DNA of 36,233 nucleotides, taken from the IMG/VR virus record IMGVR_UViG_3300025393_000055; one strand, 5' to 3'. The DNA comes from a virus. Numbering within the stretch: position 1 is the first letter of the stretch; the number at the start of each line of letters is the position of its first letter. Of the stretch, positions 31 to 30,971 are shown in pieces. The translations under genes were made by a program, and so were the position numbers. The notes under the pieces are model-generated. The model was given only the letters and a program-made list of their open reading frames with translations, had not been told where the DNA came from and searched no databases.

Positions 31-342
31 ATGAAGTGCATCAAGTGGTTCGATGGCAAGCCCTACACCTATGTCGGCACCTACTGGGACCGCGAGGTGG
101 TCCGGCTCTGCCTCCGCACGGGACGCAAGGCGGGCTACCTGATGCGGCAGGCAAAGGTCGCGGGGGGGCCCGCCCTCCCCCTGGGCCGGGACGGCTACGA
201 CATCTTCGCCCGGAAGACCCCGAAGGCGACCGGCCCGCTCCCGGTGCCGGTCGTGGTGCGGGGGACCCCCTTCGGCGGGGAGCAGTTCGATCAGGTATCG
301 GTTCCGGGGCTGGTGCTCGCGTGGACCGAGGTGCAGGTTTGA
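31..342 (+). CDS. Small basic protein, FDGK-family paralog
   Basis: KWFDGKPYTYVG...RKAGYLMRQAKV...YDIFARK matches the motif repeated across this window. Confidence 0.7.
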   Translation: MKCIKWFDGKPYTYVGTYWDREVVRLCLRTGRKAGYLMRQAKVAGGPALPLGRDGYDIFARKTPKATGPLPVPVVVRGTPFGGEQFDQVSVPGLVLAWTEVQV

Positions 343-361
343 GAACTCAGAGGCAAAAACC

Positions 362-808
362 ATGAAACAGAAGACTGGAAACAAGAAACGCCCCGCAGAC
401 CACAACCTGTGGGGGGACCGTACCGGCAAAAAAGGGGCCCTTCCGCGCAAAGAACGCTGGCCCAAAGAGTGGCCAGCCAAGCGGAAGTTCGAGGGGAAGT
501 GGTATACCCTCGAGTACGCGGAGCGGTACCGCGAGGACGCGGAAGCGGTCGCTCAGGCATCGCGGGAAGGGGTCTTCAACTCCCAAACGGGGTGGGCGAC
601 CTACTACGCCCGGGTCGTTCCCGCCCCGGTCGTGGATGCGAGGGACTTCCCGGCGTACCTCGTCTACCTGCGGCCCAAACCGCTGCCCCCCGACACGAGG
701 GCCTACAACCGGAAGTACCAGCAGGCCCCGGGCCAGTCAACCTGGTGGGACCGCGTGGATCGCATGTACCCCTCGGCTCTCCCCAAACGGCTCAGGAGGG
801 ATCGCTGA
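362..808 (+). CDS. Basic protein containing FDGK-family domain
   Basis: RKFEGKWYTL...REDAEAVAQ...YYARVV...YLVYLRPK; stop overlaps next ATG (TGATG). Confidence 0.7.
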   Translation: MKQKTGNKKRPADHNLWGDRTGKKGALPRKERWPKEWPAKRKFEGKWYTLEYAERYREDAEAVAQASREGVFNSQTGWATYYARVVPAPVVDARDFPAYLVYLRPKPLPPDTRAYNRKYQQAPGQSTWWDRVDRMYPSALPKRLRRDR

Positions 809-1017
809 TGCCTCCGGCCAGACTGCAGGCCCCCGCTCCCCCCCGGGAGCGGGTCTTCAACGGCGAGGTCTTCGAGCTCTGGACCGGCGAGTACGGCCCG
901 GAGGCGGGCGGCCACACCAAGGCGAGGGCGCAGCAGTACGCTGGCGATCTCCGGCGGCTCGGGAACTATGCCCGGGTCGTGCAGTACGGGCGGAAGTACT
1001 TCGTCTACTTCCGCTGA
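808..1017 (+). CDS. Small basic FDGK-family protein (copy A of duplicated gene)
   Basis: RVFNGEVFEL...TKARAQQYAGDLRRLGNYARVVQYGRKYFVYFR; ATG at 808; near-identical to 4240..4452. Confidence 0.8.
   Translation: MPPARLQAPAPPRERVFNGEVFELWTGEYGPEAGGHTKARAQQYAGDLRRLGNYARVVQYGRKYFVYFR
832..1017 (+). repeat. Direct repeat copy 1 (partner approx. 4267..4452)
   Basis: About 185 bp align with mostly third-position differences. Confidence 0.85.
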
Positions 1018-1024
1018 ACAGAGT

Positions 1025-1054
1025 TGCATGTGCAGAAAAATGAGGTGTAAAATG
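1025..1054 (+). promoter_or_regulatory. TGCA-TG-TGCAG palindrome followed by double-AAAATG leader/RBS
   Basis: TGCATGTGCAG-AAAAATGAGGTGTAAAATG directly before ATG 1052. Confidence 0.7.
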
Positions 1055-1537
1055 GCAAAGGTCATCAATGTCAACGGATTCACCATGGAGCCCGGTCTGC
1101 TGACTTACAACGGGAAGCGGTACCAGTTCATGACAGTCGGGCAGGACAAGAAAACGGTCCAAGACTACGTGAAGACACTCCCCCCTGACAAACAGAAGAG
1201 CATCGTGATCGCCAACGAGGACCTGACTCACTACTCGGTCTATGGGCGGAAGAATCCCAAAGTACCCCGTCTGAACATGATCGAGGTGAAGACTCCGGTC
1301 AAGCTCGCCCGATTAAATCCCTTCAGATTCAGGTACGGGGGGCACGAGTACAAGAAGACCTATGGGGACGGGCTGACCAGCTTCGCCCGATCCCCTGCGG
1401 AGGCGAAGGGGAATATCATGCACTACTACGGCGACCTCCTGCCGAAAGACCGGCACGGGCGCTTGGAGCCATACAATGAGTTCCTGATCGTCAAAGTGCT
1501 CGACAACCAGTTCTCGGTGTTCTGTCCCCTAAAATGA
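1052..1537 (+). CDS. Basic protein with two FDGK-like repeats
   Basis: Start placed at the leader motif; TYNGKRYQF...YSVYGRK and RYGGHEYKK...FSVFCP; stop TGA is supplied by the next leader (AAAATGA). Confidence 0.75.
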   Translation: MAKVINVNGFTMEPGLLTYNGKRYQFMTVGQDKKTVQDYVKTLPPDKQKSIVIANEDLTHYSVYGRKNPKVPRLNMIEVKTPVKLARLNPFRFRYGGHEYKKTYGDGLTSFARSPAEAKGNIMHYYGDLLPKDRHGRLEPYNEFLIVKVLDNQFSVFCPLK

Positions 1538-1547
1538 GGTAAAAATG
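1531..1547 (+). promoter_or_regulatory. Conserved leader AAAATGAGGTAAAAATG (type copy of about 27)
   Basis: Other copies or variants end at ATGs 1052, 3365, 4487, 4816, 9422, 12163, 13403, 19601(-), 22323, 24271, 24750, 25032, 25184, 25429, 26436, 26708, 27172, 27732, 28022, 28880, 29199, 29465, 29661, 29895, 31160, 34630, 34942. Confidence 0.9.
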
Positions 1548-1817
1548 GGAAACAGTCGTAGAAAAGATGGCCTTCGCTTTGCCCCGTATCGGACATTCGG
1601 TGACCGCCAGTATTACCTTCTCGGTTCGTCCTTTGACAAACGGGAAGCAGAGAGAACAAAGGAACGGGCAAAGATCCAAGGATCTCTGGTCCGGGTTGTA
1701 CAAGCCTCCGTTGAGGGAAGGCCCGCGTATCTGACATATGTGTTCCGCCGGGTGAAAAACCCCGCGGCAAACCCTGCGGGCCAGCAGAAGGCAGACCGGC
1801 TGAACCGGGGGCGGTGA
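1545..1817 (+). CDS. Small basic FDGK-family protein
   Basis: RTFGDRQYY...DKREAERTKERAKIQGSLVRVV...YLTYVFRR; leader motif upstream. Confidence 0.75.
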   Translation: MGNSRRKDGLRFAPYRTFGDRQYYLLGSSFDKREAERTKERAKIQGSLVRVVQASVEGRPAYLTYVFRRVKNPAANPAGQQKADRLNRGR

Positions 1818-2037
1818 TCCCCCGATGATGCCCCCCAAAACTCCCCTCAAGTTCGCGCTGATGGCTTCAGGTCTCACCAAAGCGGAGGCCGAAGCCCTCC
1901 GAAAGCGATACAAGAGGCATGGTGCCCGGTACACCCAGGTCAAGAAGAGTCCCTACGGCGGCTACGACCTCCGGGTGGGGGTTCGCCCCCTCGGCCCCGG
2001 GGGGCAGGGCGGCCTGCAGATCATCCTGACGGAGAAC

Positions 2038-2271
2038 GTCAACTACCCCCGGTTAAAACCGGGGGCCTGCAAACGGCTACGCGGGACCAAACAGTAGACT
2101 AGGAGGCAAGAAATTGCAGCAGCGTTACGGGCTACAAGAACGGCAGAGTGTTTCCCTAGCTCTGCCCTCTTCCGGGCACGCCGAACCCGACGTACCTCTC
2201 TGGGTACTAAGCCTGTCTCGCACCTCCGAAGGGAAATGCAACCCCGGCTCGACCGGGAGAAAGGGAATACC
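2038..2271 (+). ncRNA. omegaRNA scaffold of IsrB
   Basis: About 230 nt non-coding interval between element end and PLMP start, with the GTCAACTACCCC 5' end typical of IscB/IsrB loci; exact ends inferred. Confidence 0.7.
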
Positions 2272-3344
2272 ATGAGAGTTCCGGTTCTGGATTCTCACAG
2301 GACGCCGTTGATGCCAGCTACGCCAGCACGAGCTCGCCTGCTCCTCAAGCAGGGGCGGGCAAAGCCGTACTGGAACAAGATCGGTATCTTCTGCATCATC
2401 CTGACCTACGAAGTACAGCCTGACAACCAGGATCTGGTTGTCGGGATCGACCCCGGCAGTTCCTTTGAGGGCTGGTCCGTGGTCGGCACCAAAGAAACCG
2501 TCTTGAACGGTATGTCGGAGACCCCTAAACATATCAAGAAAGCCGTAGAAACCCGAAGAACGATGCGAAGAGCCCGGCGGGGCCGGAAATGCTGGCGCCG
2601 CCCGGCCCGGTTCAACAACCGGCTGAGAAACAAGACCTCCCTCCCCCCGAGCACATTTGCTCGGTGGAACGCCAAAGTACGGATCCTCGACCAGTTGCGG
2701 AAGGTTCTCCCGATCACCGCCGTGGTCGTAGAGGATGTCGCGGCGGTGACGAAGAAGCACTGCAAACGGTGGAACACGAACTTCTCGCCCCTTGAGGTCG
2801 GGAAGCAGTGGTTCTACCGGACGATCCGGGGTCTGGGGCTCACCCTGCACCTGCGTACCGGGTACGAGACCAAAGCCCTCCGGGACCGGTTCAGCTTGAA
2901 GAAGACAAGCCAGAAGAGCAAGCCGGTCTTTGCCGCTCACGCGGTCGATGCCTGGGTGATGGCCGCTGACGTATCGGGTGCGGAGCGCCCGACCGAACGG
3001 GGGTTGTATTACTGGACGCCGATCCGGTTCTTCCGGCGGCAGTTGCACCGGCTCCAGCCGGAGACCGGCGGGATCCGGAAGCCCTATGGGGGAACCCGGT
3101 CTCTGGGGCTCACCCGGGGAACGCTGGTCCGGCATATCAAGCACGGGCTGACATACATCGGAGGCACGTTGAAAGGAAAGGTGTCGTTGCACAGTGCGGT
3201 CACCGGGAAGCGGGTGACTCAGAGCGCAAAGGGGGAGGACTGTACCCCCTTAACCCGTATCGCCTGGAGAACAACAAGGTATGCCGGGATAGGCAGACGG
3301 CATTCCTCCCCCGGTTTAAACCGGGGGTCTCCTGCCTGTTCCTT
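2038..3344 (+). mobile_element. Non-autonomous IS200/IS605-superfamily IsrB element
   Basis: Begins GTCAACTACCCC; matching end hairpins CCCCCGG-TTAAAA-CCGGGGG (2046-2065) and CCCCCGG-TTTAAA-CCGGGGG (3308-3327); no tnpA. Confidence 0.8.
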
Positions 3345-3348
3345 ATGA
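2272..3348 (+). CDS. isrB: IsrB RNA-guided nickase (IscB family lacking HNH), 358 aa
   Basis: PLMP N-terminus, RuvC-I GIDPG, Arg-rich bridge helix RRTMRRARRGR, RuvC-II VVEDV, RuvC-III HAVDA; no HNH between RuvC-II and III. Confidence 0.85.
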   Translation: MRVPVLDSHRTPLMPATPARARLLLKQGRAKPYWNKIGIFCIILTYEVQPDNQDLVVGIDPGSSFEGWSVVGTKETVLNGMSETPKHIKKAVETRRTMRRARRGRKCWRRPARFNNRLRNKTSLPPSTFARWNAKVRILDQLRKVLPITAVVVEDVAAVTKKHCKRWNTNFSPLEVGKQWFYRTIRGLGLTLHLRTGYETKALRDRFSLKKTSQKSKPVFAAHAVDAWVMAADVSGAERPTERGLYYWTPIRFFRRQLHRLQPETGGIRKPYGGTRSLGLTRGTLVRHIKHGLTYIGGTLKGKVSLHSAVTGKRVTQSAKGEDCTPLTRIAWRTTRYAGIGRRHSSPGLNRGSPACSL

Positions 3349-3364: not shown

Positions 3365-3757
3365 ATGGTGAGGGAGAAGACCTATTATTGTAGGTTCATC
3401 ATCCCCGAAGGCACTCGGAAACTCCCTTGGATTCCCGTTGCCGCGGCAAGCCCCGAAGCGGCAATCAGAAAGGTGCGTTCGGGGACCGATGCCCCAGTTG
3501 AGGTGAGGTCTTCCTCCCCCTCCGGGGGTGGAGTCCTCAAGACCCGGGCTTGGATTGAGCCCGAACCGAGTGATGTACGGGTGTTTGACGGCAAGCGGTA
3601 TCAGTACTATGCCGGTGACGCTGGAGATCCCGCCCGAGTAGCCAGGATTGCCCGCGAGTTGCGGGAGAGCGGGCACCTCGCCCGCGTCGTGAAGGCAAAG
3701 GGCGGGGTATCGCACATTTACTGGTGCCCGAGATTTGGGCGGCAGGGAGGGAGATAA
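3365..3757 (+). CDS. Basic protein with C-terminal FDGK-family domain
   Basis: RVFDGKRYQYY...RELRESGHLARVVKAKGGVSHIYW. Confidence 0.75.
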   Translation: MVREKTYYCRFIIPEGTRKLPWIPVAAASPEAAIRKVRSGTDAPVEVRSSSPSGGGVLKTRAWIEPEPSDVRVFDGKRYQYYAGDAGDPARVARIARELRESGHLARVVKAKGGVSHIYWCPRFGRQGGR

Positions 3758-4239: not shown

Positions 4240-4452
4240 ATGGCACAGAACGCAGCAAACAGGATGCCCGCCCCTCCCCGGGAGCGGGTCTTCGGCGGTG
4301 AGGTCTTCGAGCTCTGGACCGGCGAGTACGGCCCGGATCCCGGTGGCCACACCAAGGCACAGGCCCAGAAGTACGCCGGAGACCTCCGGCGGCTCGGGAG
4401 TTACGCCCGGGTTGTGCAGTATGGCAGGAAGTATTTCGTGTACTTCCGGTGA
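4240..4452 (+). CDS. Small basic FDGK-family protein (copy B of duplicated gene)
   Basis: Near-identical to 808..1017. Confidence 0.8.
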   Translation: MAQNAANRMPAPPRERVFGGEVFELWTGEYGPDPGGHTKAQAQKYAGDLRRLGSYARVVQYGRKYFVYFR

Positions 4453-4845: not shown

Positions 4846-6158
4846 CTCTGCGGGGTTGAAGGGGCAGAGCGGGAGGGCTCCCTCCGCAAGGGGGGAGGTG
4901 AGAGCGGGCCCCCTTCTTCACTTTCACCCCGCACGGATATTGTTTATGCTGGAGGGGGGCCAATATGATCCTATCGTATGCTGCGAAGGTACCAGTACCG
5001 GCTGTATCCGACGAAGGATCAGGAGACCCTGATCGCCAAGCACCTTGGATGTTGCCGGTTCGTGTACAACTGGGCTCTCGCCCGCAAGAACACGGCGTAC
5101 CACGGCGAGGGGCTCAGCCTGTCCCGGTACGACCTCACGAACCAGCTTCCGGCCCTCAAAGAGGAGTTACCGTGGCTGAAAGAGGTCAACGCCCAGTCTC
5201 TGCAGCAGTCGATCATCCATCTCTCCCGTGCGTTCACGAACTTCTTCGAGGGCCGGGCCGAAGAACCGACCTTCAAGAAGAAGCACGATCCCGAACAGGC
5301 GTTCACGGTTCCGCAATCCTACACCGTGGACTTCGGGCGGGGTACCGTGAAACTCCCGAAGATCGGGGCGGTCAAGGTCAAGTACCACCGCACCTTCGTG
5401 GGTACGACGAAGTCTGCAACCGTCATCCGCAAGTCCACGGGTCGGTACCTGATCAGCATTGTGGTCGAAGACGGCCGGACGCCGCCGAAGCCCGCCGATC
5501 CGATCCTGGATCAGACGGTCGGGATCGACCTGGGTCTCTCGCACTATGCCGTCCTCTCGACCGGGGAAAAGGTGGCGAATCCGAAGTATCTCAGGAACGC
5601 CCAGGTGCGGCTGGCCGTGCTCCAGCGCCGGCTCGCCCGCAAGCAGAAGGGGTCGAAGAACCGGAACAAGGCTCGACTCAAGGTGGCCCGGTGTCACCAG
5701 AAAATTGCCGATCAACGCAAGGACTTCCAGCACCAGCTCTCTTCTCGACTGGTCCGCGAAAACCAAGCCCTGGCTGTGGAGTCCCTGAACGTGGACGGCA
5801 TGGTGAAGAACCCCAAGCTGGCAAAGGCGATCAGCGATGCTGGATGGGGTACGTTCCTCGGAATGCTGGCGTACAAGTGCCGGGAGGCGGGGAAGACCCT
5901 GCTGAAGATCGGGGTCTTCGAGCCGTCTTCCAAGACCTGCTCGGTCTGCGGCTACCGGAAGGCCGACCTGACGCTGAAGGACCGGGAATGGACATGCCCG
6001 GACTGCGGGACGACCCACGACCGGGACCTGAACGCCGCGATCAATATCAAACACTTCGCACTAGCAGGCGCGGAACGCGCCGAAGAGCCTGTGGACCCGC
6101 TCCCGATGGGGAGGGGGATGAAGCAGGAAGCCCCCTGCGTAAGCGGGGGGTAGTTCAC
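4846..6158 (+). mobile_element. IS605/IS1341-type tnpB-only element
   Basis: Left end follows TCTAC; right-end hairpin CCCCCTGC-GTAA-GCGGGGGG then TAGTTCAC; left end also present at 33769; clean in-frame empty site. Confidence 0.88.
4978..6153 (+). CDS. tnpB: TnpB RNA-guided endonuclease
   Basis: YRLYPT N-terminus, GCCRFVYN, RuvC-I GIDLG, RuvC-II VESL, Zn finger CSVC/CPDC, RuvC-III HDRDLNAAINI. Confidence 0.95.
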   Translation: MLRRYQYRLYPTKDQETLIAKHLGCCRFVYNWALARKNTAYHGEGLSLSRYDLTNQLPALKEELPWLKEVNAQSLQQSIIHLSRAFTNFFEGRAEEPTFKKKHDPEQAFTVPQSYTVDFGRGTVKLPKIGAVKVKYHRTFVGTTKSATVIRKSTGRYLISIVVEDGRTPPKPADPILDQTVGIDLGLSHYAVLSTGEKVANPKYLRNAQVRLAVLQRRLARKQKGSKNRNKARLKVARCHQKIADQRKDFQHQLSSRLVRENQALAVESLNVDGMVKNPKLAKAISDAGWGTFLGMLAYKCREAGKTLLKIGVFEPSSKTCSVCGYRKADLTLKDREWTCPDCGTTHDRDLNAAINIKHFALAGAERAEEPVDPLPMGRGMKQEAPCVSGG

Positions 6159-6176
6159 CAAGGGCCGTATATCTTC
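6000..6176 (+). ncRNA. Predicted TnpB right-end omega/reRNA with guide from 3' flank (6159 onward)
   Basis: Established TnpB architecture (scaffold overlaps tnpB 3' end and right end); 5' boundary is approximate. Confidence 0.55.
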
Positions 6177-6376
6177 GTGAACGGAGTGGGGGCCAAGGTC
6201 TGGCATCATGAAGTGGGTGGGCGCTGGCTCGTCGAGATGGGCCGGAGAGGCAACAACGGGTTCTCAGGCCCGCTCACCTCGAGAGGGGTGGTTCAACTGA
6301 TCAAACAGCTTGCAGGTCGGCCCGCAATCAAGGCAAAGAGTTCGCAGAAGAGGCCCTCTTCAAAGAGGCGTTGAGT

Positions 6377-7290: not shown

Positions 7291-7518
7291 ATGGGACAGA
7301 GAGAGTATGATCCCGGCCTTTGCAGCGGCTACCCAGTCCGCCGGGCGTTCGATGGGGTGTGGTTCAAGCTGGGCACGATGGACTCTTTAGACGGCCAGTT
7401 TGGCACGAAAAAAGAGGCCGAACGGACTGCGAAGGCGTATCGTGCGAAAGGGTACTATGCTCGCATGGTCAAGGTTCTTCCAGGCTATCTGGTCTATATC
7501 CGCAAAAAGACCCGGTAG
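7291..7518 (+). CDS. Small basic FDGK-family protein
   Basis: GGAGGTGA RBS; RAFDGVWFKL...TKKEAERTAKAYRAKGYYARMVKVLPGYLVYIRKK. Confidence 0.8.
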   Translation: MGQREYDPGLCSGYPVRRAFDGVWFKLGTMDSLDGQFGTKKEAERTAKAYRAKGYYARMVKVLPGYLVYIRKKTR

Positions 7519-7534
7519 CCCCCCTTCTTTTTTA
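7519..7534 (+). terminator. Pyrimidine/T-rich archaeal-type terminator
   Basis: CCCCCTTCTTTTTT immediately after stop. Confidence 0.5.
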
Positions 7535-7586
7535 CCTGCCCCCGCCCCTCTATCCCCGGTCTGCCATCTTAATACGATAACAATAA

Positions 7587-7629
7587 ATAGAATGACAGAT
7601 AACCCTCTGTCAGAAACCTGCACATGCAG
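7587..7629 (+). promoter_or_regulatory. Putative operator block upstream of AAA ATPase
   Basis: Inverted repeat TGACAGA-N6-TCTGTCA plus CTGCACATGCAG (7618-7629); similar block at 9359..9401. Confidence 0.55.
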
Positions 7630-7648
7630 AAAAACCGGAGCGTTCCCC

Positions 7649-9331
7649 ATGACCGAGAAAATGCCTCTCAAAAATGCACTAGAAATGCACATCCGGGCGA
7701 AATACCCCCTGATCTGCATCGAAACGCACGAGGAGCCTCGTGTGGTTCAGATCCTCGCGGAGACCGCGGGCCCGGCTGGCCTGAACCGGAGCCTCCTGTA
7801 CTGGTCCGTGACCCGGGGCCTCCTCGACCTGACCCAGAACCTTCAGGAGATCGCCTCTGGCGAGATGAAGGTCCTTGAAGGGCGGGGGGTCCTCGTCCAG
7901 AAGACCCCGGAAGGCCTCTACGAGATCATCAGGGGCGAGCCCACACCGGGTCCTGCTGACCCCTACCAGATCCTTGAGGACATCGGCCGGTACCCAGAGC
8001 CCGGGATCTTCGTCCTCGCGGACTACCACCAGTATCTCCGGGAGCAGAACCCGGACCCGATCACCGTCAGGAAGGTGCGGGACCTGTTTGCGGATCTCAA
8101 GGACACCCGGAAGACCATCATCATGATCTGCCCCCGGCTCAGCCTCCCCGGCGACCTCGAGAAGGAGATCACCTACCTCGACCTCCCGCTCCCGAGCCGG
8201 GACGAGCTCGGCGCGATGCTGGATCAGGCCGTCGCGGAGATCCGGGAGATCGCGGAGGAAGGGAACGAGCGGACCCGGGAAGCCCTGGCGGTCATCGAGC
8301 CCCAGCTTGCTGACCGGGACAAGATCGTGGAGGCCGGGGCGGGCCTCACCCGGGCCGAGTGGGAGAACGTCATCGCGAAGTGTTTCGTCTCCCGCCGGCT
8401 GGAGACCAGCCTCATAAATCAGGAGAAGCGCCAGATCATCAAGAAAGGCGGCCTCTTAGAGTTCTTCGAGACCCCCGAAAGCATGGCCAGCGTCGGCGGG
8501 CTCGCGAACCTGAAAGCCTGGCTCACGAAGGCCAAGCTTCGGTTCACCCCGAAGGCCAAGGCGTTCGGCCTCACCCCGCCCCGGGGGATCCTGCTCGTCG
8601 GGCCGCCGGGCACCGGGAAGTCCCTCGTTGCGAAGGTCGCGAGCCACGAGCTCCAAATCCCCGCCCTCCGGCTCGACATGAGCATGATCGCGAGCAAGTA
8701 CTACGGGGAGACCTCCAATAATATCAGAAAAGCCCTCGATATGGCCGACGCGGTCGCTCCGGTCGAGTTCTGGCTGGACGAGGTGGAAAAGATGTTCGCC
8801 TCGGGCCAGGGGGGTACCGGCGGGCATGAGGAGACCATGCGGTCCCTCGGCGCAGTCCTCACGCACTTTGAGGAATCGACCCAGCCGGTCTTCCGGATCG
8901 CGACCTGCAACCAGATCCAGAACCTGCCGCCGGAGTTCATGGCGCGGTTCGAGAAGGTCTTCTTCGTGGACCTCCCGAACCATGCCGAGCGGCAGGAGAT
9001 CTTCGCGATCCACCTCCGGCAGGTGGGCCGGGACCCGGCGGGGTTCGACCTCGCCGCCCTCGCGGCCGCGACCGAGCGGTTCGTCGGCCGGGAGATCCGG
9101 AACCTCGTCCAGGAGGCCCTGCAGACCGCCTTCTACGAAGGGGTCGAGGTCACCACCGACCACCTGATCGTGGAGTCAGCGAAAGTTACGCCGATCTTCT
9201 CGCAGAAAGAGGACGAGATCAATGCCCTCCGCGAGTGGGCGGCAAAGAACGCGGAACCTGCCTCGGCGGTCGTCGCGGCCGAGCCCGCGAAGGCGAACAA
9301 GGGCAAGGGGCGGCGGGGGGTCGAGTTCTAA
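7649..9331 (+). CDS. Ycf46-like AAA+ ATPase
   Basis: IRAKYPLICIETHEEPR N-domain; VGGLANLKAWL; Walker A GPPGTGKS; Walker B WLDEVEK; PPEFMARFEKVFFVDLP; start inferred at 7649. Confidence 0.9.
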   Translation: MTEKMPLKNALEMHIRAKYPLICIETHEEPRVVQILAETAGPAGLNRSLLYWSVTRGLLDLTQNLQEIASGEMKVLEGRGVLVQKTPEGLYEIIRGEPTPGPADPYQILEDIGRYPEPGIFVLADYHQYLREQNPDPITVRKVRDLFADLKDTRKTIIMICPRLSLPGDLEKEITYLDLPLPSRDELGAMLDQAVAEIREIAEEGNERTREALAVIEPQLADRDKIVEAGAGLTRAEWENVIAKCFVSRRLETSLINQEKRQIIKKGGLLEFFETPESMASVGGLANLKAWLTKAKLRFTPKAKAFGLTPPRGILLVGPPGTGKSLVAKVASHELQIPALRLDMSMIASKYYGETSNNIRKALDMADAVAPVEFWLDEVEKMFASGQGGTGGHEETMRSLGAVLTHFEESTQPVFRIATCNQIQNLPPEFMARFEKVFFVDLPNHAERQEIFAIHLRQVGRDPAGFDLAALAAATERFVGREIRNLVQEALQTAFYEGVEVTTDHLIVESAKVTPIFSQKEDEINALREWAAKNAEPASAVVAAEPAKANKGKGRRGVEF

Positions 9332-13402: not shown

Positions 13403-13684
13403 ATGCGATTAGTACCAGCAGCGATCTGTCGGGCTGACGGCGAGACGATGGCCCGGTGCTACAACGGGCGGCTCTACGTCGCTCAAGGAGCCTATTCTGA
13501 GAAGGAGGAGGCGGAAGCGTATGCCAGCACCTGCCGGGGCGAGGGCGGTCTCGCCCGGGTGACCCAGGAGCGGAAACCCCGCCGGATGCGGACCTCCAAG
13601 CAGTACATGTGGGTGGTCTGGGCGTGCCCGGCCGAGACCGTCGCGGACAATCTGGAGGGTGAGGAGGTGGCCGCATGTCCGTAG
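13403..13684 (+). CDS. FDGK-family protein
   Basis: RCYNGRLY...YSEKEEAEAYA...GGLARVTQ...YMWVVW. Confidence 0.7.
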   Translation: MRLVPAAICRADGETMARCYNGRLYVAQGAYSEKEEAEAYASTCRGEGGLARVTQERKPRRMRTSKQYMWVVWACPAETVADNLEGEEVAACP

Positions 13685-13932
13685 CCCGGCAGGTGACGAT
13701 CCATGTCGCCCTGAACCCCGACCAGAACCGGAAGCTGATCCGGGGCAAGGTCTTCGAGCGGTATGGAACCTATCCGTCTCTGGACGATGCGATCCAGGTC
13801 GCGGGCTGGCTCCGCTCCAAGGAGGGCCGGATCCACCCCGACCACTGGACGATCTCCGAGGTTGTGGACTGCGGGGCCCGGCCCGGCCGGGACCGCTACG
13901 CGGTCTTCGTGCGGAAAGGCCGGGTCCTCTGA
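13675..13932 (+). CDS. FDGK-family-like protein
   Basis: IRGKVFERYGTYPSLDDAIQVAGWLR...YAVFVRKGR; GAGGAGGTG RBS. Confidence 0.65.
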   Translation: MSVARQVTIHVALNPDQNRKLIRGKVFERYGTYPSLDDAIQVAGWLRSKEGRIHPDHWTISEVVDCGARPGRDRYAVFVRKGRVL

Positions 13933-14355
13933 GCCCGGATCTCCTGCCGCAGGCGCCCTCTCCCGGGGGGCATCTCCCCTCTCTTCTCCGGCACAATTCT
14001 CTCCCGGCACCCCCCGCTCAAAACGCGATAGCGTGGCTCTGGTGCGATCCTGCGATCCGAGGATGTGCGGCATGGCCCGCCGGGAGCCTCGCCCAAACCT
14101 AAGCCTCGTTCCGCTCAAACGAAGGGCGGATCGGGCTTCGTTGCCCGTATAGCAACATATGGTTTATGGGCGAAACCGTGGCCGCCTGGGTGCAGGATCG
14201 CCCGGATCTCACTGGACGGCAGGGGGTTCGGGAACCCGCCCATGATCTTCTGTTTCCTGCCGATTTTCTGCACATGCAACTTTCTCGTTGCCCGGTTGGA
14301 AACCTTCATGTGGGATCGTCACCCATCCCCTCCGTACCCACACGGAGTGTTTAAA

Positions 14356-14847
14356 ATGCGCTGGACAAATGAGCAGCAAGCCCTGATCGTAAAATATCGT
14401 GGAACGAACGCCCCTTCTCCCACACTCTTGACGCGGATCCCCGAAGGGGATCGAAGATATAAATGCCCGGTCTGCCACCTCGTCCTCTCTTCTGCCGACC
14501 TCATCGAGGGCCGGTGCCCCGTCTGCGGCGAGGCCGAGGCCCTGCGGATCATGTGCCCCCTCGACCACACCCACTGCCCTCATGCCGTCGTTGAGTCGCT
14601 GGCCTACTGCCCCCTCTGCGGCGAGCCGGTCTGCCCGGAGTGCGGGAGCCATGATGTCTCCCAAATGAGCCGGATTACGGGTTACATCGGGGATTTAAGC
14701 GGCTGGAACGCCGGGAAACAGCAGGAACTGAAGGATAGAACCCGCTACGACCCCTTCGACCTCGCGGCCGTCCCGGCCCCAGCTCCGGCGAAGGTGCCGC
14801 CGCCGCCCGCCCACGCCCTCCCGGCCCCGATCGAGGTCGCGGATTAG
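14356..14847 (+). CDS. Stand-alone NrdD C-terminal-like protein (Zn ribbons + glycyl-radical loop)
   Basis: Multiple CxxC, CPECGSHDV, SRITGY glycyl motif, WNAGKQQELKDR; resembles small methanogen NrdD-related proteins. Confidence 0.8.
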   Translation: MRWTNEQQALIVKYRGTNAPSPTLLTRIPEGDRRYKCPVCHLVLSSADLIEGRCPVCGEAEALRIMCPLDHTHCPHAVVESLAYCPLCGEPVCPECGSHDVSQMSRITGYIGDLSGWNAGKQQELKDRTRYDPFDLAAVPAPAPAKVPPPPAHALPAPIEVAD

Positions 14848-15894: not shown

Positions 15895-16197
15895 TCAGTC
15901 CTCCTCCCCCTGTGTTGCACCCGGCGGGGAGATAATGCTTCCCCAGATCTGCTTTGCAAGGGTATCAGCAACCCGGATCACGGCATTTACATCTGCCGAG
16001 CTGGCAACCGTCAACTGGTAGGTTTTGGCATCTCCTTCGGGGGCCCCGGGGTCGATACAGACCGCGTCCAGGCAATAGCACCCCGCGTCGGGGTCGTACA
16101 GCACGACAAACCCCACTACGGCTTCGACCGGGATGTAGTGCAGGATCACATCCGTTCCGCCGGTTCCATCAAGTTTCAATACAGGCATTTCCTCCAT
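15895..16197 (-). CDS. Hypothetical acidic protein
   Basis: 100 aa ORF in operon. Confidence 0.6.
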   Translation of the reverse strand: MEEMPVLKLDGTGGTDVILHYIPVEAVVGFVVLYDPDAGCYCLDAVCIDPGAPEGDAKTYQLTVASSADVNAVIRVADTLAKQIWGSIISPPGATQGEED

Positions 16198-17113
16198 CTC
16201 CTAGACGAAAACGGCTTTTCGGGCCGGGGGCCCGGTTCTTCGATCTGTCTAACTGATCGACATCGCACATCCAGAATACCTGCGGGCGGTTCGCCCACCA
16301 CGCAACCTTCCGGGTCCACTCGGTTCTCTTTCCGTACTGCATCACAAACGGCGTTGCTCCAAGTTCCTTGAGCAACCGGCACCGATACTTATCCTCTTCG
16401 GGGGTCGTGTCGAACCCGACGAGGACATACACGGACACCTCGTGTCGGGTGCGGATCCCGGCATCCTGCAACAGTTGAATGCCTCGCCGGATCGCGGCCT
16501 CGTCCTGAATCCGGTCGAAAGCGAAGTGTAATTGTCCGGACCATTCCAGGTCTGCGAGCCTGCCCGCGATATCCTCATCAAGGATCCGAATATCCATCCC
16601 CTGAACCGCATTGAACCGGAGCCCCTGCTCGAGAATGTAGTCTGTGTTCTCGAAGAACCACGCTTTGTCTGCGTAAACATTGTTATCGAGGCACACCACT
16701 GCATCAAACCGCTCGTCATGCCATTCGTGGATGTGCTGCCACCTCTGGATCTTCCCCTCCTTCTCCGGGACCACACAGAACGGGCAGCGTCGGATACAGC
16801 CGCGGGTCGTGAACCCGAGTGAGTACGTAGAAGGGTACAGATCATAATCCGGCTTGCAGAACTCGATCTCGTTTGGCAGGCGCTTTGCGAGGTCTACGCC
16901 CGTGCCCCCGATATCAACTTCGGCGTTCGGGAACATCTGGCGCTGGGCGGTTGCCTTCCAGGCATTCTTGGTAAAGGTCACGGAAACAAAGACCCGATCC
17001 GGGTCTGGCTCATCAAAGCTCACTGAATGCCCCATATTCTTGTAGTATGCCGACAGTTTCATCAGGGCAAGGTTCGGGATTTTACTGTCGATATCGATCA
17101 GTCTGACCTTCAT
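16169..17113 (-). CDS. Radical SAM protein of the virus-associated IDSKIPNLALMK type
   Basis: TTRGCIRRCPFCVVPEKEG (CxxxCxxC); GGAGGAGGA RBS before ATG 17113. Confidence 0.85.
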   Translation of the reverse strand: MKVRLIDIDSKIPNLALMKLSAYYKNMGHSVSFDEPDPDRVFVSVTFTKNAWKATAQRQMFPNAEVDIGGTGVDLAKRLPNEIEFCKPDYDLYPSTYSLGFTTRGCIRRCPFCVVPEKEGKIQRWQHIHEWHDERFDAVVCLDNNVYADKAWFFENTDYILEQGLRFNAVQGMDIRILDEDIAGRLADLEWSGQLHFAFDRIQDEAAIRRGIQLLQDAGIRTRHEVSVYVLVGFDTTPEEDKYRCRLLKELGATPFVMQYGKRTEWTRKVAWWANRPQVFWMCDVDQLDRSKNRAPGPKSRFRLGDGGNACIET

Positions 17114-17736
17114 TCCTCCTCCCCGTTCTTCCGGCGGAGCTGCCGCTCGCACTCCTCCTGGAGCATCGGGTACTCGGCCGCGATCCGCTCGTAGATCTTC
17201 GCGTTCAGGATCCGATACGCCTCCTGCTTCCCGACCCGGCCGAAGAGGGCGTCCAGCCGGGCCTCGTAGTTTGAGAGGTTGTGCCGGAGGTGGTTGACCG
17301 CGATCCGCTGCAGGAACTCCGGGGAACTGTCCCGCGACGCGGGCTCGTATTTGTGCCCCCGTTCCTGGTAGAGGTCCTCGTGGAACCGGTTGTAGGCCCG
17401 GATCGCGGCATCCACCACGACCTCGTAGGGCTTCGGCCGGAGGACGATCTGCCAGGTGGCGAGCTCCTGCAGGAGCCGGTCCCGCTTCGTCGCGACGGCC
17501 TTCCGGGCCCCACCCCGCCGGCCCGCGTTCCCGGCCACGAACGCCTGATATGCCGCACTCTGCTCGGCCGCCTCGACCCGGCTCGTCCGGTACAGCTTCG
17601 CCGGGGCCGCCGACCGGAAGACCGGGTTCTTGGCCTCTCGGTCGCAGGGGCCGAGGAAGGCGACGATGGCCTTCTCCGTCCAGCCCCGGGCCTTCAGGCC
17701 CGCCTTGGTGAGGTATTCTTCCTGATCGCCGGTCAT
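17110..17736 (-). CDS. Hypothetical virus-type protein
   Basis: LKARGWT...NP......LY...RVE pattern; overlap coupling on both sides. Confidence 0.7.
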   Translation of the reverse strand: MTGDQEEYLTKAGLKARGWTEKAIVAFLGPCDREAKNPVFRSAAPAKLYRTSRVEAAEQSAAYQAFVAGNAGRRGGARKAVATKRDRLLQELATWQIVLRPKPYEVVVDAAIRAYNRFHEDLYQERGHKYEPASRDSSPEFLQRIAVNHLRHNLSNYEARLDALFGRVGKQEAYRILNAKIYERIAAEYPMLQEECERQLRRKNGEEE

Positions 17737-19914: not shown

Positions 19915-20556
19915 TTACTCTTCCTGCCCGGCTGTCCGCACTTCTTTGTTCAGGTCCTCTTCTGCCCACTCTTTCAGTCTGAGGTACAGGGTGTTCCTGG
20001 CGATCTTAAGTTTCCTGGCAACCTCTGCCTTCGAGACCCCAAGGGCAAGCAGTCGCTCAACCTTTGCACGATCAACCTCCTTCACTTTTGGACCAAACTT
20101 GACTCCCTTCTCCTTCGCCGCCTCCTGACCGAGTTTCACCCGCTCAATGATCAGAGCCCGTTCATACTCTGCAAATGCCCCCGAAATGTGGAAAAATAGC
20201 CTCCCGGTTGAGGTTGTGGTGTCGATACTCTCTTCCGTGCTGACCAGGTCGATTTGGTGCGCTTTGAACCACTCCGCGATTCGAATTAGGTCCGAGAGTG
20301 ACCGGCCGAGCCGATCCAGTTCATGGACGATGACCACATCGGCCATATGGGCCCGGAGTTCCAGATCCCGGAGCATCTTCTGGAACCCCTGGCGATCCGT
20401 GTCTTTCCCACTGGCCTTATCCGTGTAAACCCCCATCAGTTCTATGCCCCGGTAAGTACAGAACTTCTGGATCTTCTCGATCTGAGCATCAAGGTCCTGG
20501 CTTGGAGTGCTCACCCGGGCATACCCATAGGCCCGCTTCACCTTGCGTTCGCTCAT
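19915..20556 (-). CDS. Serine resolvase/invertase with C-terminal HTH
   Basis: YARVSTPSQ catalytic Ser, DKASGK, LDRLGRS, GRLFFHISGAFAEYER, HTH. Confidence 0.93.
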   Translation of the reverse strand: MSERKVKRAYGYARVSTPSQDLDAQIEKIQKFCTYRGIELMGVYTDKASGKDTDRQGFQKMLRDLELRAHMADVVIVHELDRLGRSLSDLIRIAEWFKAHQIDLVSTEESIDTTTSTGRLFFHISGAFAEYERALIIERVKLGQEAAKEKGVKFGPKVKEVDRAKVERLLALGVSKAEVARKLKIARNTLYLRLKEWAEEDLNKEVRTAGQEE

Positions 20557-21167
20557 TCTAATCCCCCCTCCGTTCCTCGGTTCTCATTCTCCTGCCTCTC
20601 CTTTTTTCTCCGATAAAACGTGGTGAGCGGGTAGCCGCATACCTTCGCCGCCGCCCGTTCGGACAGTTTCTTCTTCTTCCAGAACTCGATCTTCTCCCAA
20701 TCAACCTCTATCCTGGGGCGTCCGATCTGCTTCCCCTGCGCCTTGGCTCTCGCGAGGCCTGCTTTCGTATCCTCGCGAATCTTCTTCCGCTGGAGATCCG
20801 CACCAAGCGTCACGGCTGAGGTCAGCAGGGGCTGGAGTTCCGGCTGGGCGTTCAAAACAAACTCATCCAACTGGTTCAGCGAGACCACCTTGATCCCAGC
20901 GTCCTGAAGCCGCCAGATCTCCTGCAGGGTCCCCTTCGCGTCACGGCCGAGGCGGGAGAGGTCCGTCACATAGAGCTCCTTCACCTCTCCAGTATTGAGG
21001 AGGGCGGCCATCTGCTTGTAACCCGGGCGCTGTTCGGGGTCCTTTGCCCCGCTCACACCCTGGTCGCGGTAGATATGCTGCTCGGGGATCCCAGCCTCGG
21101 TGAGCTGCTTGATCTGCCGGGTCATGTCCTGGGAGTCTTGAGAGGTCCGTGCGTATGCAATTCTCAT
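20553..21167 (-). CDS. Second, divergent serine resolvase with C-terminal HTH
   Basis: YARTSQDSQ, DQGVSG, LSRLGRD, IGRPR, HTH-like end; ATGA-coupled to next resolvase. Confidence 0.9.
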   Translation of the reverse strand: MRIAYARTSQDSQDMTRQIKQLTEAGIPEQHIYRDQGVSGAKDPEQRPGYKQMAALLNTGEVKELYVTDLSRLGRDAKGTLQEIWRLQDAGIKVVSLNQLDEFVLNAQPELQPLLTSAVTLGADLQRKKIREDTKAGLARAKAQGKQIGRPRIEVDWEKIEFWKKKKLSERAAAKVCGYPLTTFYRRKKERQENENRGTEGGLE

Positions 21168-24270: not shown

Positions 24271-24546
24271 ATGGGAAAACTGAGGAAAGAGCGCCCCGAA
24301 CGCCGGACGTTCAACGGGAAGAGGTTCCAGATCGTGGGCTGTTACAAAGAGGCCGGCGAAGCCCGGAAGACGCAGCGCCGTCTCCTGGCGCAGAACCGGC
24401 TCGCCAGAGTTGTGCCGTCCACGGCCCCGCTCCTGAAACTCGAACAACTGCAGAAGGCCTCGGGGCAACCGATTGGAAAGCCCCGGCCCGGGGAGACCTA
24501 CTACATCCTCTACGCCCGCAGGCAGGAGTCGGAGAACTGGCGATGA
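24271..24546 (+). CDS. FDGK-family protein
   Basis: RTFNGKRFQI...EARKTQRRLLAQNRLARVV...YYILYARR; leader. Confidence 0.8.
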   Translation: MGKLRKERPERRTFNGKRFQIVGCYKEAGEARKTQRRLLAQNRLARVVPSTAPLLKLEQLQKASGQPIGKPRPGETYYILYARRQESENWR

Positions 24547-25031: not shown

Positions 25032-25154
25032 ATGGAACAGTTATCATCCGCTCTCCGAAAAAAGGGCAAACTGGTGAAGATCGTCAATCTCACCTACCGG
25101 TCCCTCGAGGATGCAAAGAAGGGCATGGACTTCTGGGTCAACAAATCAGAATAA
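25032..25154 (+). CDS. 40-aa protein MEQLSSALRKK... (below ORF-track cutoff)
   Basis: Perfect leader; 5' end shared with 27172 gene. Confidence 0.6.
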   Translation: MEQLSSALRKKGKLVKIVNLTYRSLEDAKKGMDFWVNKSE

Positions 25155-27143: not shown

Positions 27144-27174
27144 CTGCATATGCAGTAAAATGAGGTAAAAAATG
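27144..27174 (+). promoter_or_regulatory. Perfect palindrome CTGCATATGCAG fused to leader
   Basis: CTGCATATGCAG-T-AAAATGAGGTAAAAAATG fills the whole intergenic gap. Confidence 0.7.
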
Positions 27175-27717
27175 GATCAGTCATCATCCGCTCTCAGGAT
27201 CCTTGAGAAGAGCAAGCGAGAGAAGGAGTTCCGGGTTTCGCGAGACCACCTCTACTACTTTGCGGGGGAGTACTACTACAAGCGCGATGCCGAAGACACC
27301 AAGAACGCCCTGAAAAAGGCAGGGTATTCGGTACTGATGCGGAAAGGCCCTCGCCAGTCTGACGGGTACCAACTCCATGCTCGGAAGGTCAAAGCGACTT
27401 CTGAAGACAAAGCGAACCCCCTGTATAGGGGAAACCGGGTGGTAGAGGTCACGCTTGAATCCGCTCGGCCCCCCATCTGGACCGTCACGCTCATGCACAC
27501 CGCAAAGAATGGCGAGTACCGGAGAGATTACTCTAAATCCGCTGGTGAGTACACCCGATACCATGACGGCCCCTCTATCACCCCTGCGGTCACAGAGGCA
27601 AAGCGTCTGGCGAAGAAATGCGGGAAAGGAACCTACGTTGTCATCTACGGTGCGACCTCAGCAGAGACGTTGCAGTGGGATGGAACGCGGTTCGTGAACC
27701 TGAAACGGGCCCCGTAG
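27172..27717 (+). CDS. Protein with FDGK-family-like N-domain plus second domain
   Basis: YYKRDAEDTKNALKKAGYSV...YQLHARK; leader. Confidence 0.75.
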   Translation: MDQSSSALRILEKSKREKEFRVSRDHLYYFAGEYYYKRDAEDTKNALKKAGYSVLMRKGPRQSDGYQLHARKVKATSEDKANPLYRGNRVVEVTLESARPPIWTVTLMHTAKNGEYRRDYSKSAGEYTRYHDGPSITPAVTEAKRLAKKCGKGTYVVIYGATSAETLQWDGTRFVNLKRAP

Positions 27718-27731: not shown

Positions 27732-27992
27732 ATGCCCTGGAACAAAGATGGCACGTATGTGCCGGTACCCGATGACCGGACCTTCGACGGCAAGCGGTTC
27801 TCCCTCCTGTGGGTGACCGGGTTCAGCTCGAAGCGCCGGGCAGAACAGACAAAGAACGCCCTCAAAGAGGGGGGGAGCAAGCCCTACAATGTGCGGATCG
27901 TTCCCTATGATGGAGGCTACTACCTCTACACCGCTCCGCGGGTGACCCGGGAAGACTCCCAGTGGTTGATCCAGCGGATCGGGGGGCTCTGA
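27732..27992 (+). CDS. FDGK-family protein
   Basis: RTFDGKRFSL...SKRRAEQTKNALKEGG...VRIVPYDGGYYLY. Confidence 0.8.
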   Translation: MPWNKDGTYVPVPDDRTFDGKRFSLLWVTGFSSKRRAEQTKNALKEGGSKPYNVRIVPYDGGYYLYTAPRVTREDSQWLIQRIGGL

Positions 27993-28879: not shown

Positions 28880-29149
28880 ATGGCAAAGAGTCCGTTCACC
28901 ACAGCAACCCTCACCTATATGGTGAAGGGCAAGGTACAGTCCAAGAAAATCCCGATCCCGGCCCAGCGTCATGCCCTCGGGATCCTGAAACAGCGAGAAG
29001 GGTATGTTGAGATCTGCTGGTTCAAGGTGCCTCCCGCGGTAGGGGGGTACCAGGAGGACAACTTCAAGACCAAGGTCGTGCGGGTTCCCATGGATGCCGG
29101 GCTCGCCAGCCTGAAGGTCGGCGGCCGCGTGATCTCCAAGGCCACCTGA
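28880..29149 (+). CDS. Small basic hypothetical protein
   Basis: Extended leader variant. Confidence 0.7.
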   Translation: MAKSPFTTATLTYMVKGKVQSKKIPIPAQRHALGILKQREGYVEICWFKVPPAVGGYQEDNFKTKVVRVPMDAGLASLKVGGRVISKAT

Positions 29150-29198
29150 ACCGCGTGCAGAACATCGTTAAAATGTGATCAAAAGGAGGACCAGAAAA

Positions 29199-29411
29199 AT
29201 GGCAAACATCAAGTACGACCGGTCGCGGAGCAAAATCTTCAACGGCACGCCGTATTTCTTTTACAAGCAGGCTGACGGCCGGGTCAACGGCCGGAACATC
29301 GTGAACCGGCTCCGGGGCATGGGCTTCTCGGCCCGGATGACCGTGAACCAGGGGAAGAACACCGGCGGCTGGCCGGTCAAGGTCTACAACATCTGGCTCA
29401 GGGAGCGGTGA
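29199..29411 (+). CDS. FDGK-family protein
   Basis: KIFNGTPYFF...RLRGMGFSARM...VYNIWLRER; GGAGG RBS. Confidence 0.75.
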   Translation: MANIKYDRSRSKIFNGTPYFFYKQADGRVNGRNIVNRLRGMGFSARMTVNQGKNTGGWPVKVYNIWLRER

Positions 29412-29436
29412 GGGCGGCTCGGCCCCCCGCCCCCGG

Positions 29437-29467
29437 CTGCATGTGCAGAAAAATGGAGGTTAAAATG
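29437..29467 (+). promoter_or_regulatory. CTGCATGTGCAG palindrome + leader
   Basis: CTGCATGTGCAG-AAAAATGGAGGTTAAAATG. Confidence 0.7.
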
Positions 29468-29623
29468 TCTCGAATCTTTGATGGAAAGACCTTCCGAGAG
29501 GCGACCGCGGCCCCGACCCGGGCCTCGGCAGAGATCGTTGCCGCCGAGTGGCGCAACAATGGATGGAACGCCCGCGTGGTGAAGAAGAAGCACTCCTACA
29601 CGATCTACGTGCGGAGGAAGTAA
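29465..29623 (+). CDS. Minimal (52 aa) FDGK-family protein
   Basis: MSRIFDGKTF...TRASAEIVAAEWRNNGWNARVVKKKHSYTIYVRRK. Confidence 0.8.
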   Translation: MSRIFDGKTFREATAAPTRASAEIVAAEWRNNGWNARVVKKKHSYTIYVRRK

Positions 29624-29660
29624 GGGCCGGTTGCCCTGACGTTAAAATGGAGTCCGAAAA

Positions 29661-29870
29661 ATGATGCTCAAATACTCAACCCTCTACGAGGTCCCGCCCT
29701 ACCGGGCGTGGCGGATCGCGTTCTACAACTCCCAGTACACCTACCTGTTCTTCGGAACCAAGGAGGACGCGAAGGCCGCAGGCCAGAAGCTTGCAGACCA
29801 GCTCGCAAAGAAGGGTAAGCTCGTCTCGAATATGTCGATCAAAGAGGTCTCCAAGTACCTGGGGAAGTGA
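29661..29870 (+). CDS. Small basic protein
   Basis: Leader; FGTKEDAKAA motif. Confidence 0.7.
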   Translation: MMLKYSTLYEVPPYRAWRIAFYNSQYTYLFFGTKEDAKAAGQKLADQLAKKGKLVSNMSIKEVSKYLGK

Positions 29871-29894
29871 CCCCCCCAAAAATGAGTGAGTAAA

Positions 29895-30173
29895 ATGGCA
29901 CGAGTTACCAAAGCCCTGCTGGAGGGCATGACCAAAACCGTGGGGCGGCTCTACGGCTATCCTACTGTGGGTGAACCTGCCCCCCAAGGCTCAAAGAACC
30001 GTTATAAGAAGGCCTTCCTGATGCTGTCCGCAGATCAGTACTACAATCTGATGGTCGTCCAGAAGGACGGCAGCTGGACCGAGTTCGGCGGCTCCCGGCA
30101 GTACACCGCCTCAGAGATGGAGGTCTACCTCAAAGGACTGATCGACGGCAAGACCCACCAGAAGCGGCGGTGA
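29895..30173 (+). CDS. Small hypothetical protein
   Basis: Leader AAAAATGAGTGAGTAAAATG. Confidence 0.7.
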   Translation: MARVTKALLEGMTKTVGRLYGYPTVGEPAPQGSKNRYKKAFLMLSADQYYNLMVVQKDGSWTEFGGSRQYTASEMEVYLKGLIDGKTHQKRR

Positions 30174-30223
30174 GGGGTAGGAAGATCATACCCCTCTGTA
30201 TCAGTATGGAGGCAAGTACCAGC

Positions 30224-30736
30224 ATGGAAAAATACACGCTTACTCAGAATCAAAAGGCTGAGCTACAGAAAACCGGCTACGTGAACATCACCCGAAACGG
30301 CAAGCAGGTCCGGGTAACAACCTCAATGGTGAAGGAAACTCTTGCAAGGCCGTCCGTATCGCTCTTCAAGATGGATCATCTGGCGAACCCCGATGAGAAA
30401 GACCTCAAAATCGCCACTGACCGGATAAAGGCCTACAACAAGCGGAGAGGTCCGCGGGTCGGGGACTTCATCATCATGCCGGACGGCTCTTACCAGCGAT
30501 TCTCGTACAAATGGCCGGAAGGGTTGCAGACTTCAAACGGGGGGAGTTACTTCCTCGGGTCCTCCGGCTACGCTTCAATGTCTGGAAGTCTGAACCGGAC
30601 GGTTCCGAACAAACAGATCAAACCGACCCCCGAACGAAAGGAAGGTCCGTTCTGGTTCTTCCACCATGACATGGCGACGGCTCACAACGCCGTTGGGGTC
30701 AGGGCGTTGTGTCGGGTGTACCGGCATACGGGATGA
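30224..30736 (+). CDS. Hypothetical protein, C-domain possibly DUF4121-like
   Basis: GDFIIMPDG...QTSNGGSYFLG...SMSGSL...FWFFHHD; family recalled, not searched; GGAGG RBS. Confidence 0.6.
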   Translation: MEKYTLTQNQKAELQKTGYVNITRNGKQVRVTTSMVKETLARPSVSLFKMDHLANPDEKDLKIATDRIKAYNKRRGPRVGDFIIMPDGSYQRFSYKWPEGLQTSNGGSYFLGSSGYASMSGSLNRTVPNKQIKPTPERKEGPFWFFHHDMATAHNAVGVRALCRVYRHTG

Positions 30737-30746
30737 GGTGGCCGGT

Positions 30747-30971
30747 ATGGTACAACTCTATCGTATGTTTGACGGCAAGCGGTACACCTGGGCGGGCTAT
30801 GCCCGGACCAAGACCGAAGCCGAAAGACGGAAAGCCAAAATGAAAGAAGAGGGGTTCAAGGTCCGGCTCGTCAAGATGCTCGGAACCTCGATCCGAGCCC
30901 CGCCAGAACGCGGGAAACACGCCGAGAAAGTGTGGGTCCTCTACGAGCGGGATAACCTCTTAGATAGGTGA
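30747..30971 (+). CDS. FDGK-family protein
   Basis: RMFDGKRYTW...TKTEAERRKAKMKEEGFKVRLVK...VWVLYER. Confidence 0.8.
   Translation: MVQLYRMFDGKRYTWAGYARTKTEAERRKAKMKEEGFKVRLVKMLGTSIRAPPERGKHAEKVWVLYERDNLLDR

Follow-up and report, generated by a model that had tools for sequence, protein, structure and literature searches.

The 36,233-nucleotide viral record IMGVR_UViG_3300025393_000055, called the window here at its full length, encodes a set of small and mostly very basic proteins that share one domain of about 50 residues. Fourteen genes are certain members of this family and three more are probable members; the 17 amount to about one gene in six and to 14% of the length of the window. Judged from profiles and predicted structures, the domain is best described as a separate, unnamed family that shares ancestry with a SPOR repeat, of which it would be a remote offshoot. 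The window belongs to a mobile element that is linked to Methanoculleus and known only uncultured, from metagenomes of digesters and bioreactors; it is probably a large virus and less probably a plasmid. Comparable expansions occur in unrelated marine viruses.

Domain family members in the window

The initial annotation had assigned 17 genes to one shared domain. All 17 are ATG-started open reading frames (ORFs) on the plus strand, and most have a GAGGT-type ribosome-binding site 4-8 nucleotides (nt) upstream. Their MAFFT alignment has the pattern R-x-F-[DNG]-G-K-x-[YF], followed by K-x-x-A in the helix, G-x-x-A-R-V-V, and Y-x-[VI]-Y-x-R. Leave-one-out profiles built on 13 seed genes recover each omitted gene, with expectation values (E) of 5e-5 to 5e-16 in a search space of the six-frame ORFs of the window (Z = 676). 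A profile made from 60 proteins from other metagenomes only, with no window sequence in it, returns 14 window ORFs, every one of them on the plus strand, with E between 2e-8 and 2e-20, and nothing below E 0.3 on the minus strand or in the wrong frames of the window. The genes at 13675, 1825, and 1052 are borderline, with E 1e-3 to 5.5e-3 against this external profile and 59-82% in profile-sequence comparison with hhalign, a test in which seven unrelated small window genes score at most 0.3%. The assignment therefore stands for 14 genes and is probable only for these three. In the following list of features, E refers to the external profile unless the leave-one-out search is named:

31-342, plus strand: certain member, 103 residues, N-terminal domain and 40-residue tail; E 1.2e-9, leave-one-out E 5e-5
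362-808, plus strand: certain member, 148 residues, basic N-terminal arm, domain at about 37-112 with a long loop, C-terminal tail; E 4e-9, leave-one-out E 1e-8
808-1017, plus strand: certain member, 69 residues, recent duplicate of 4240; E 3e-15
1052-1537, plus strand: probable member, 161 residues, domain at 18-72; E 5.5e-3, hhalign 68% for the whole, 82% for the N-terminal half, and 0.2% for the C-terminal half
1545-1817, plus strand: certain member, 90 residues; E 1.5e-13
1825-2097, plus strand: probable member, 90 residues, strand-helix-strand-strand without the first (RxFDGK) hairpin; E 2.5e-3, hhalign 60%
3365-3757, plus strand: certain member, 130 residues, unrelated 62-residue N-terminal part and then the domain; E 2.7e-13, leave-one-out E 4e-14
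4240-4452, plus strand: certain member, 70 residues, duplicate of 808; E 8e-16
7291-7518, plus strand: certain member, 75 residues, directly upstream of the AAA ATPase gene; E 5e-18, leave-one-out E 5e-16
13403-13684, plus strand: certain member, 93 residues, the sole near-neutral copy (isoelectric point (pI) 6.3); E 2.4e-13
13675-13932, plus strand: probable member, 85 residues, overlapping the end of 13403; E 1e-3, hhalign 59%
24271-24546, plus strand: certain member, 91 residues, 25-residue insert between the last two strands; E 8e-12, and alignment
25032-25154, plus strand: possible fragment, 40 residues, helix and strand only, left out of the count; E 0.014, hhalign 32%
27172-27717, plus strand: certain member, 181 residues, domain at 15-75 and an unrelated 105-residue C-terminal part (hhalign 0.5%); E 1.8e-8
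27732-27992, plus strand: certain member, 86 residues, the only window copy with a weak Pfam SPOR match; E 1.3e-14
29199-29411, plus strand: certain member, 70 residues; E 7e-11
29465-29623, plus strand: certain member, 52 residues, bare domain and basis of the structure model; E 2e-20
30747-30971, plus strand: certain member, 74 residues, loop insert; E 6.5e-18

The products of 808 and 4240 are 90% identical over 61 residues, the product of 362 has 62% identity to the protein P0025 of another element, and the 3' end of 1825 extends into the IsrB insertion described below. Two repeats had been proposed for 1052, but it has a single domain, residues 81-161 being the half without a match. Among the looser matches named at the same time, 25032 is weak, while 24543 and 29661 (4%) and 25184 (0.1%) are unsupported.

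One orthologue pair, 1545 and its counterpart on the variant contig L001, has a ratio of nonsynonymous to synonymous substitution rates (dN/dS) of 0.08, which would mark the family ORFs, as represented by this one gene, as real genes under purifying rather than diversifying selection. It could be argued that the similarity is compositional only, a product of short ORFs rich in Lys and Arg in DNA of high GC content: the proteins are indeed small and basic, and there is some circularity in the profile searches. The matches are confined to one frame and one strand, however, the members come from DNA of 36-65% GC, the fold prediction is confident, and small basic controls from the window remain at or below 0.3% where the borderline members reach 59-82%. 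The leave-one-out searches, the external profile, and the hhalign controls rule this explanation out, and we leave it practically no probability; the domains align with one another beyond composition, as had been proposed.

Fold, charge, and relation to SPOR

The AlphaFold2 model of the 29465 product, based on a 14-row alignment, has a predicted local distance difference test score (pLDDT) of 96.4 and bears out its description as the bare domain. Strands at residues 2-5, 8-16, 34-40, and 45-51 and a helix at 19-31 give the order strand-strand-helix-strand-strand. The tandem relative P0009 is modeled as two such units (pLDDT 88); its linker is disordered and its predicted template modeling score (pTM) is 0.50, so the packing of the two domains cannot be read from the model. 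A homodimer prediction for the 52-residue domain has a score of 0.00 and counts neither way. None of the 17 window proteins has a hydrophobic leader or anchor, no 15-residue segment exceeding 1.4 on the Kyte-Doolittle scale, and we infer that they remain cytoplasmic. The pI is 9.7-11.3 in all window members except 13403. The mean net charge of the domain is +7.1 in the window, +11.3 in the outside members, and +10 to +12 in the marine viruses described below, which corresponds to +7 to +12 per approximately 64 residues in every lineage, across DNA of 36-65% GC. The F, G, K, A, G, and R positions are nearly invariant across the outside members.

SPOR domains are exported or membrane-anchored and bind denuded murein glycan strands in the cell envelope. 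No model in Pfam, PHROGs, or NCBIfam covers the window members or the 60 outside members beyond weak SPOR matches, and no paper describing the domain family was found in the literature. The earlier statement that no described family accounts for the domain is thus upheld, the direct Pfam SPOR matches being weak and, in the window, below the cut-off. Among ten window proteins compared with Pfam SPOR (PF05036), 27732 alone matches, with 18.5 bits and E 0.0026 against a gathering cut-off of 21 bits; 10 of the 60 outside members match at E<=0.01, the best at 2.8e-5. In sequence-profile searches of the PDB the top natural match is the CwlC SPOR domain (1x60) at E 0.012, and no match is better. Foldseek also has CwlC SPOR as the best natural match, with a template modeling score (TM) of 0.68, and no match at E<=0.001 in the PDB and viral models. 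With VIA-align, CwlC SPOR (Z 5.1) is just under a LAGLIDADG half-domain (I-Tsp061I, Z 5.5), and RlpA SPOR has Z 4.6. The ESM Atlas has unnamed clusters with the same fold from Uroviricota, Planctomycetota, and Aminicenantota (TM 0.92-0.95), and SPOR clusters come next (TM 0.72). Comparison of the family profile with ten bacterial SPOR domains by hhalign gives 89.5% and E 2e-6 over 38 columns, and places the first hairpin, the helix, and the A-R-V-V strand onto the second SPOR repeat.

MC1 (PF05854) is a chromosomal protein of Methanosarcina and haloarchaea with the same order of strands and helix as the domain, and for this reason it was taken as both rival and control. Kinship with MC1 was rejected: hhalign gives 2% against 14 MC1 sequences, there is no Pfam match, and MC1 is outside the top 50 fold matches. 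SPOR compared with MC1 also gives 2%, and MC1 was not found in three Methanoculleus genomes. Because profile, fold, and hhalign results favor SPOR against the 2% for MC1, a separate family sharing SPOR-repeat ancestry is the description that we prefer. By length, helix number, export, and Pfam score the domain is not a SPOR domain; it is the profile-profile comparison that points to common ancestry. The resemblance to half a SPOR repeat that was originally noted is correct in that SPOR is the nearest relative, but the alignment corresponds to the second SPOR repeat plus an extra strand and not simply to half.

Distribution, history, and putative function

An exhaustive profile search of 1.84 billion cluster representatives returns 2,726 clusters (50% identity) at E<=1e-3; these are metagenomic, almost all 50-90 residues long, and include some tandem repeats. 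Within the sensitivity of BLAST, tblastn finds no match for two members in 50,697 phage records or for one member in 72,556 plasmid records. The domain is absent from three Methanoculleus genomes. Across Methanomicrobiales there are 0-2 copies per genome, with one or two in 9 of 151 genomes, and eight genomes have a conserved single chromosomal homologue of about 68 residues (L102, 1465-1674; same place in L099, L101, and L103-L107) that is always flanked by a DUF5661 gene, two KTSC genes, and two GNAT (Acetyltransf_3) genes. A search for longer fused forms gave only orthologues of 27172, and Pfam has no informative fusion partner for ten longer matches. The 697-residue metagenomic protein P0001 (L084, 123-2216) is a string of modules, at least three of them copies of the domain; a G-A-V-L-S-N-P linker precedes each, and this recurring sequence resembles a repeated processing or linker site. 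On three metagenomic contigs that are unrelated to one another and also have RecT, Dam, and resolvase genes, DUF5658 (PF18902) genes lie at most a few kb from family members.

The window paralogues have at most 41% mutual identity, except for 808 and 4240, which are the only recent duplicates, and nearly every window copy is closer to a relative in another element than to its siblings. For example, the product of 29465 has 63% identity to a protein on 36% G+C contigs with three copies in 6.6 kb. Relatives of the element have one to five copies per 4-7 kb, in another order, and some paralogue types that are absent from the window. The tree does not place the window copies in one clade, as recent local duplication would: their 14 rows require 13 label changes, where shuffled labels average 13.4, in a weakly resolved tree of 62 columns whose outside rows were chosen by a window-derived profile, which favors mixing. 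The marine-virus copies cluster together in the same tree, with 5 changes against a shuffled mean of 16.9. These comparisons suggest an old and diversified family whose members have been gained, lost, and moved rather than produced in a recent burst. The large paralogous expansion that was first reported is therefore present, with 14-17 copies in 36 kb, but it is not a recent local burst, and its copies are dispersed among outside relatives.

The two marine viral genomes are complete IMG/VR records with terminal repeats, 63.4 and 65.4 kb long and 43% G+C. They have 15 and 19 matches to the domain in a first count, and 13 and 17 by the family profile at E<0.01. The domain is mostly N-terminal and sometimes C-terminal on ORFs of 250-950 residues that lie in one same-strand block:

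G178 (L135-L138), 28645-48426: same-strand block
G177 (L139-L142), 65-32143: same-strand block

The block takes up approximately half of each genome, almost every ORF in it has the domain at one end, and the domain tags roughly a quarter of the large proteins in both genomes. One carrier is a SNF2/ResIII DNA helicase (phrog_62, E 1e-22) with the domain at its N-terminus, another contains TusA, and the others match nothing; for the large ORFs of both genomes, cultured phages give no match, and Pfam and PHROGs give almost none.

A cytoplasmic nucleic-acid-binding module is the function that we favor for the domain, at about an even chance. It is favored because of the cytoplasmic location, a murein-free host, the uniform charge, the conserved positions, and the use of the domain alone, in tandem, and as a terminal tag on large proteins that include a DNA helicase. 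On the sheet face that the helix leaves free would lie the nearly invariant Arg of the A-R-V-V strand, together with a conserved Tyr and a conserved Arg from the last strand. This open face may bind a polyanion, with DNA or RNA the likeliest; its equivalent in SPOR and RRM domains is used for glycan or RNA. The free-standing paralogues would then be diversified small nucleic-acid-binding proteins with regulatory, architectural, or genome-associated roles, and in other viruses the module would serve as a tether, fused terminally to large proteins. Several points weigh against nucleic-acid binding. The placement of Arg and Tyr on the open face comes from strand alternation only, ordinary SPOR domains are also positive (net charge +4), and the window copy 13403 is near-neutral. 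Seventeen diverged copies exceed the needs of a general DNA-coating role. Most of the marine fusion partners are without known function, which leaves the helicase as the one example. Designed mini-proteins match the fold as well as SPOR does; the fold is small and common, and alone it proves little. A broader proposal, which we put forward tentatively and with clearly less confidence, is that a SPOR repeat gave rise to a new class of tethering module in viruses, and that archaeal and marine viruses without relation to each other separately amplified it to 13-19 copies per genome. The module would attach much of the viral proteome, small free proteins in the window and large enzymes in the marine viruses, to the viral genome or load it into the particle.

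If the domain were a capsid-targeting or packaged-cargo tag, the tagged proteins would be carried to the virion interior or to the packaged genome and would reach the next cell along with the DNA. This is unlikely in our estimate, although the domain is terminal on 13-17 different large proteins in one same-strand block in two complete viral genomes, gene content varies between close relatives of the window element, and the result would resemble the variable internal proteins of T4-type phages. The small size and basic charge of the family proteins fit as well, and here the proposal overlaps with DNA binding. No capsid, portal, terminase, or prohead protease gene is seen in the window or its 3.7-kb extension, however, which makes particle formation by the element itself conjectural, and a single conserved chromosomal copy in eight Methanomicrobiales genomes also weighs against a cargo tag. 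Somewhat less likely again is a fast-turnover arsenal for counter-defense or host takeover, with each paralogue blocking a different host protein. The genes do sit in variable regions rich in small unannotated genes, relatives hold other paralogue types in another order, and paralogue identity is no higher than 41%, but the charge is uniformly and strongly positive and the F, G, K, A, G, and R positions hardly vary over thousands of clusters, which points to one common class of ligand and not to many protein targets, and the dN/dS of 0.08 for one gene indicates purifying selection on orthologues.

True SPOR-type binding of glycans on the cell envelope is highly improbable. SPOR is the closest named family, but the domain proteins have no signal peptide or membrane anchor, the model has one helix and a different strand order, and the window proteins are below the Pfam SPOR cut-off. 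Methanoculleus has an S-layer and neither murein nor pseudomurein. The earlier view, which disfavored cell-wall binding, is thus backed indirectly on this point, by the lack of a hydrophobic leader and by the link to this host.

Carrier element and known systems

Methanoculleus is a key methane producer in digesters, and to our knowledge almost nothing is known about its mobile elements. The recognizable genes of the window, which is 62% G+C, are the following, together with an RNase H and a zinc-ribbon protein:

2236-3348: RRXRR/IsrB-type protein, Pfam E 3e-44
7400-9331: AAA ATPase, 28% identity to AAA ATPases of Corndog-like mycobacteriophages
14065-14847: NrdD-like protein, only the last 55 NrdD positions (C-terminal glycyl-radical end) and a zinc ribbon
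16169-17152, minus strand: weak radical-SAM match near the NrdD-like gene
19915-21167, minus strand: two adjacent serine resolvases overlapping at their junction, Pfam Resolvase E 1e-45 and 1e-29

The link to Methanoculleus is drawn from three features of the window. The IsrB protein has 76-89% identity to copies in Methanoculleus genomes and at most 50% elsewhere (bacteria); Rfam has no guide RNA beside the gene. The best host marker of the window is 140 nt long and lies at 33763-33902: 38 of 48 Methanoculleus genomes have it in many copies, with identities reaching 89%. It resembles a miniature mobile element or an insertion-sequence end. The NrdD-like piece has about 75% DNA identity to host genes, and its product may be a spare-part glycyl-radical protein. 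The window has no tRNA genes or Rfam matches and no match in cultured phages, and the 469-residue ORF at 4965-6374 has no Pfam family at E<=0.01. PHROGs and Pfam applied to the larger window ORFs and to the 3.7-kb extension give no capsid, portal, terminase, or prohead protease, and both virus and plasmid are retained because no particle gene was found. A longer contig of the element adds an MT-A70 methylase and an RNA ligase. The same element (99.7-100% identity) and relatives with an ATPase 81-98% identical are present in many digester and bioreactor metagenomes, whereas exact 42-mer searches of IMG/VR and JGI contigs did not retrieve the element. Of all its markers the AAA ATPase is conserved best, and 31 metagenome loci have relatives of this protein at 29-98% identity. 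Several copies of the domain are found only at loci where the ATPase relative has about 80% identity or more, and the domain is absent from a 127-kb viral contig whose ATPase is 34% identical.

Neither a SPOR-like fold nor the expansion of paralogues in large viruses is new in kind. What is undescribed is the family itself, along with its occurrence in an archaeon-linked element, its scale, and the tagging of many large proteins with it: there are thousands of sequence clusters, yet no name in Pfam, PHROGs, or NCBIfam. The identity of the ligand would annotate a sizeable part of viral dark matter at once, and would show the manner in which a bacterial cell-wall-binding fold came to be re-used inside cells without a wall of that type.

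Compared with SPOR domains (CwlC, 1x60; FtsN, 1uta; RlpA, 6i0n), the domain has in common the hairpin, the helix, and the next strand of the second SPOR repeat, with an aromatic residue at the matching position of the strand. SPOR domains have about 70 residues and two helices on a four-stranded sheet, whereas the domain has about 50 residues, one helix, and an extra C-terminal strand; its proteins also lack an export signal, are much more basic, are below the Pfam cut-off, and belong to an element tied to a murein-free archaeon. MC1 is similarly basic and of similar size. RRM/RNP and LAGLIDADG domains also have a small antiparallel sheet backed by helix with an open face that could carry a ligand, but the domain has no RNP1/RNP2 or LAGLIDADG motifs, and the scores, such as TM 0.49 for the Hera RRM, are within the chance range for such a small fold. 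The internal proteins of T4-type phages are small and basic, are encoded at a variable locus, and share a targeting signal that is a short cleaved peptide. They would resemble the family in being small basic proteins, in having a shared module on differing proteins, and in their turnover between related genomes; they differ in that the module described here is a folded domain and not a cleaved peptide, and in that no particle genes or protease are seen in the window. Finally, arrays of small paralogues in large phages also have many diverged copies of one small domain per genome in variable regions, but the present family is not private to one virus and extends over thousands of clusters.

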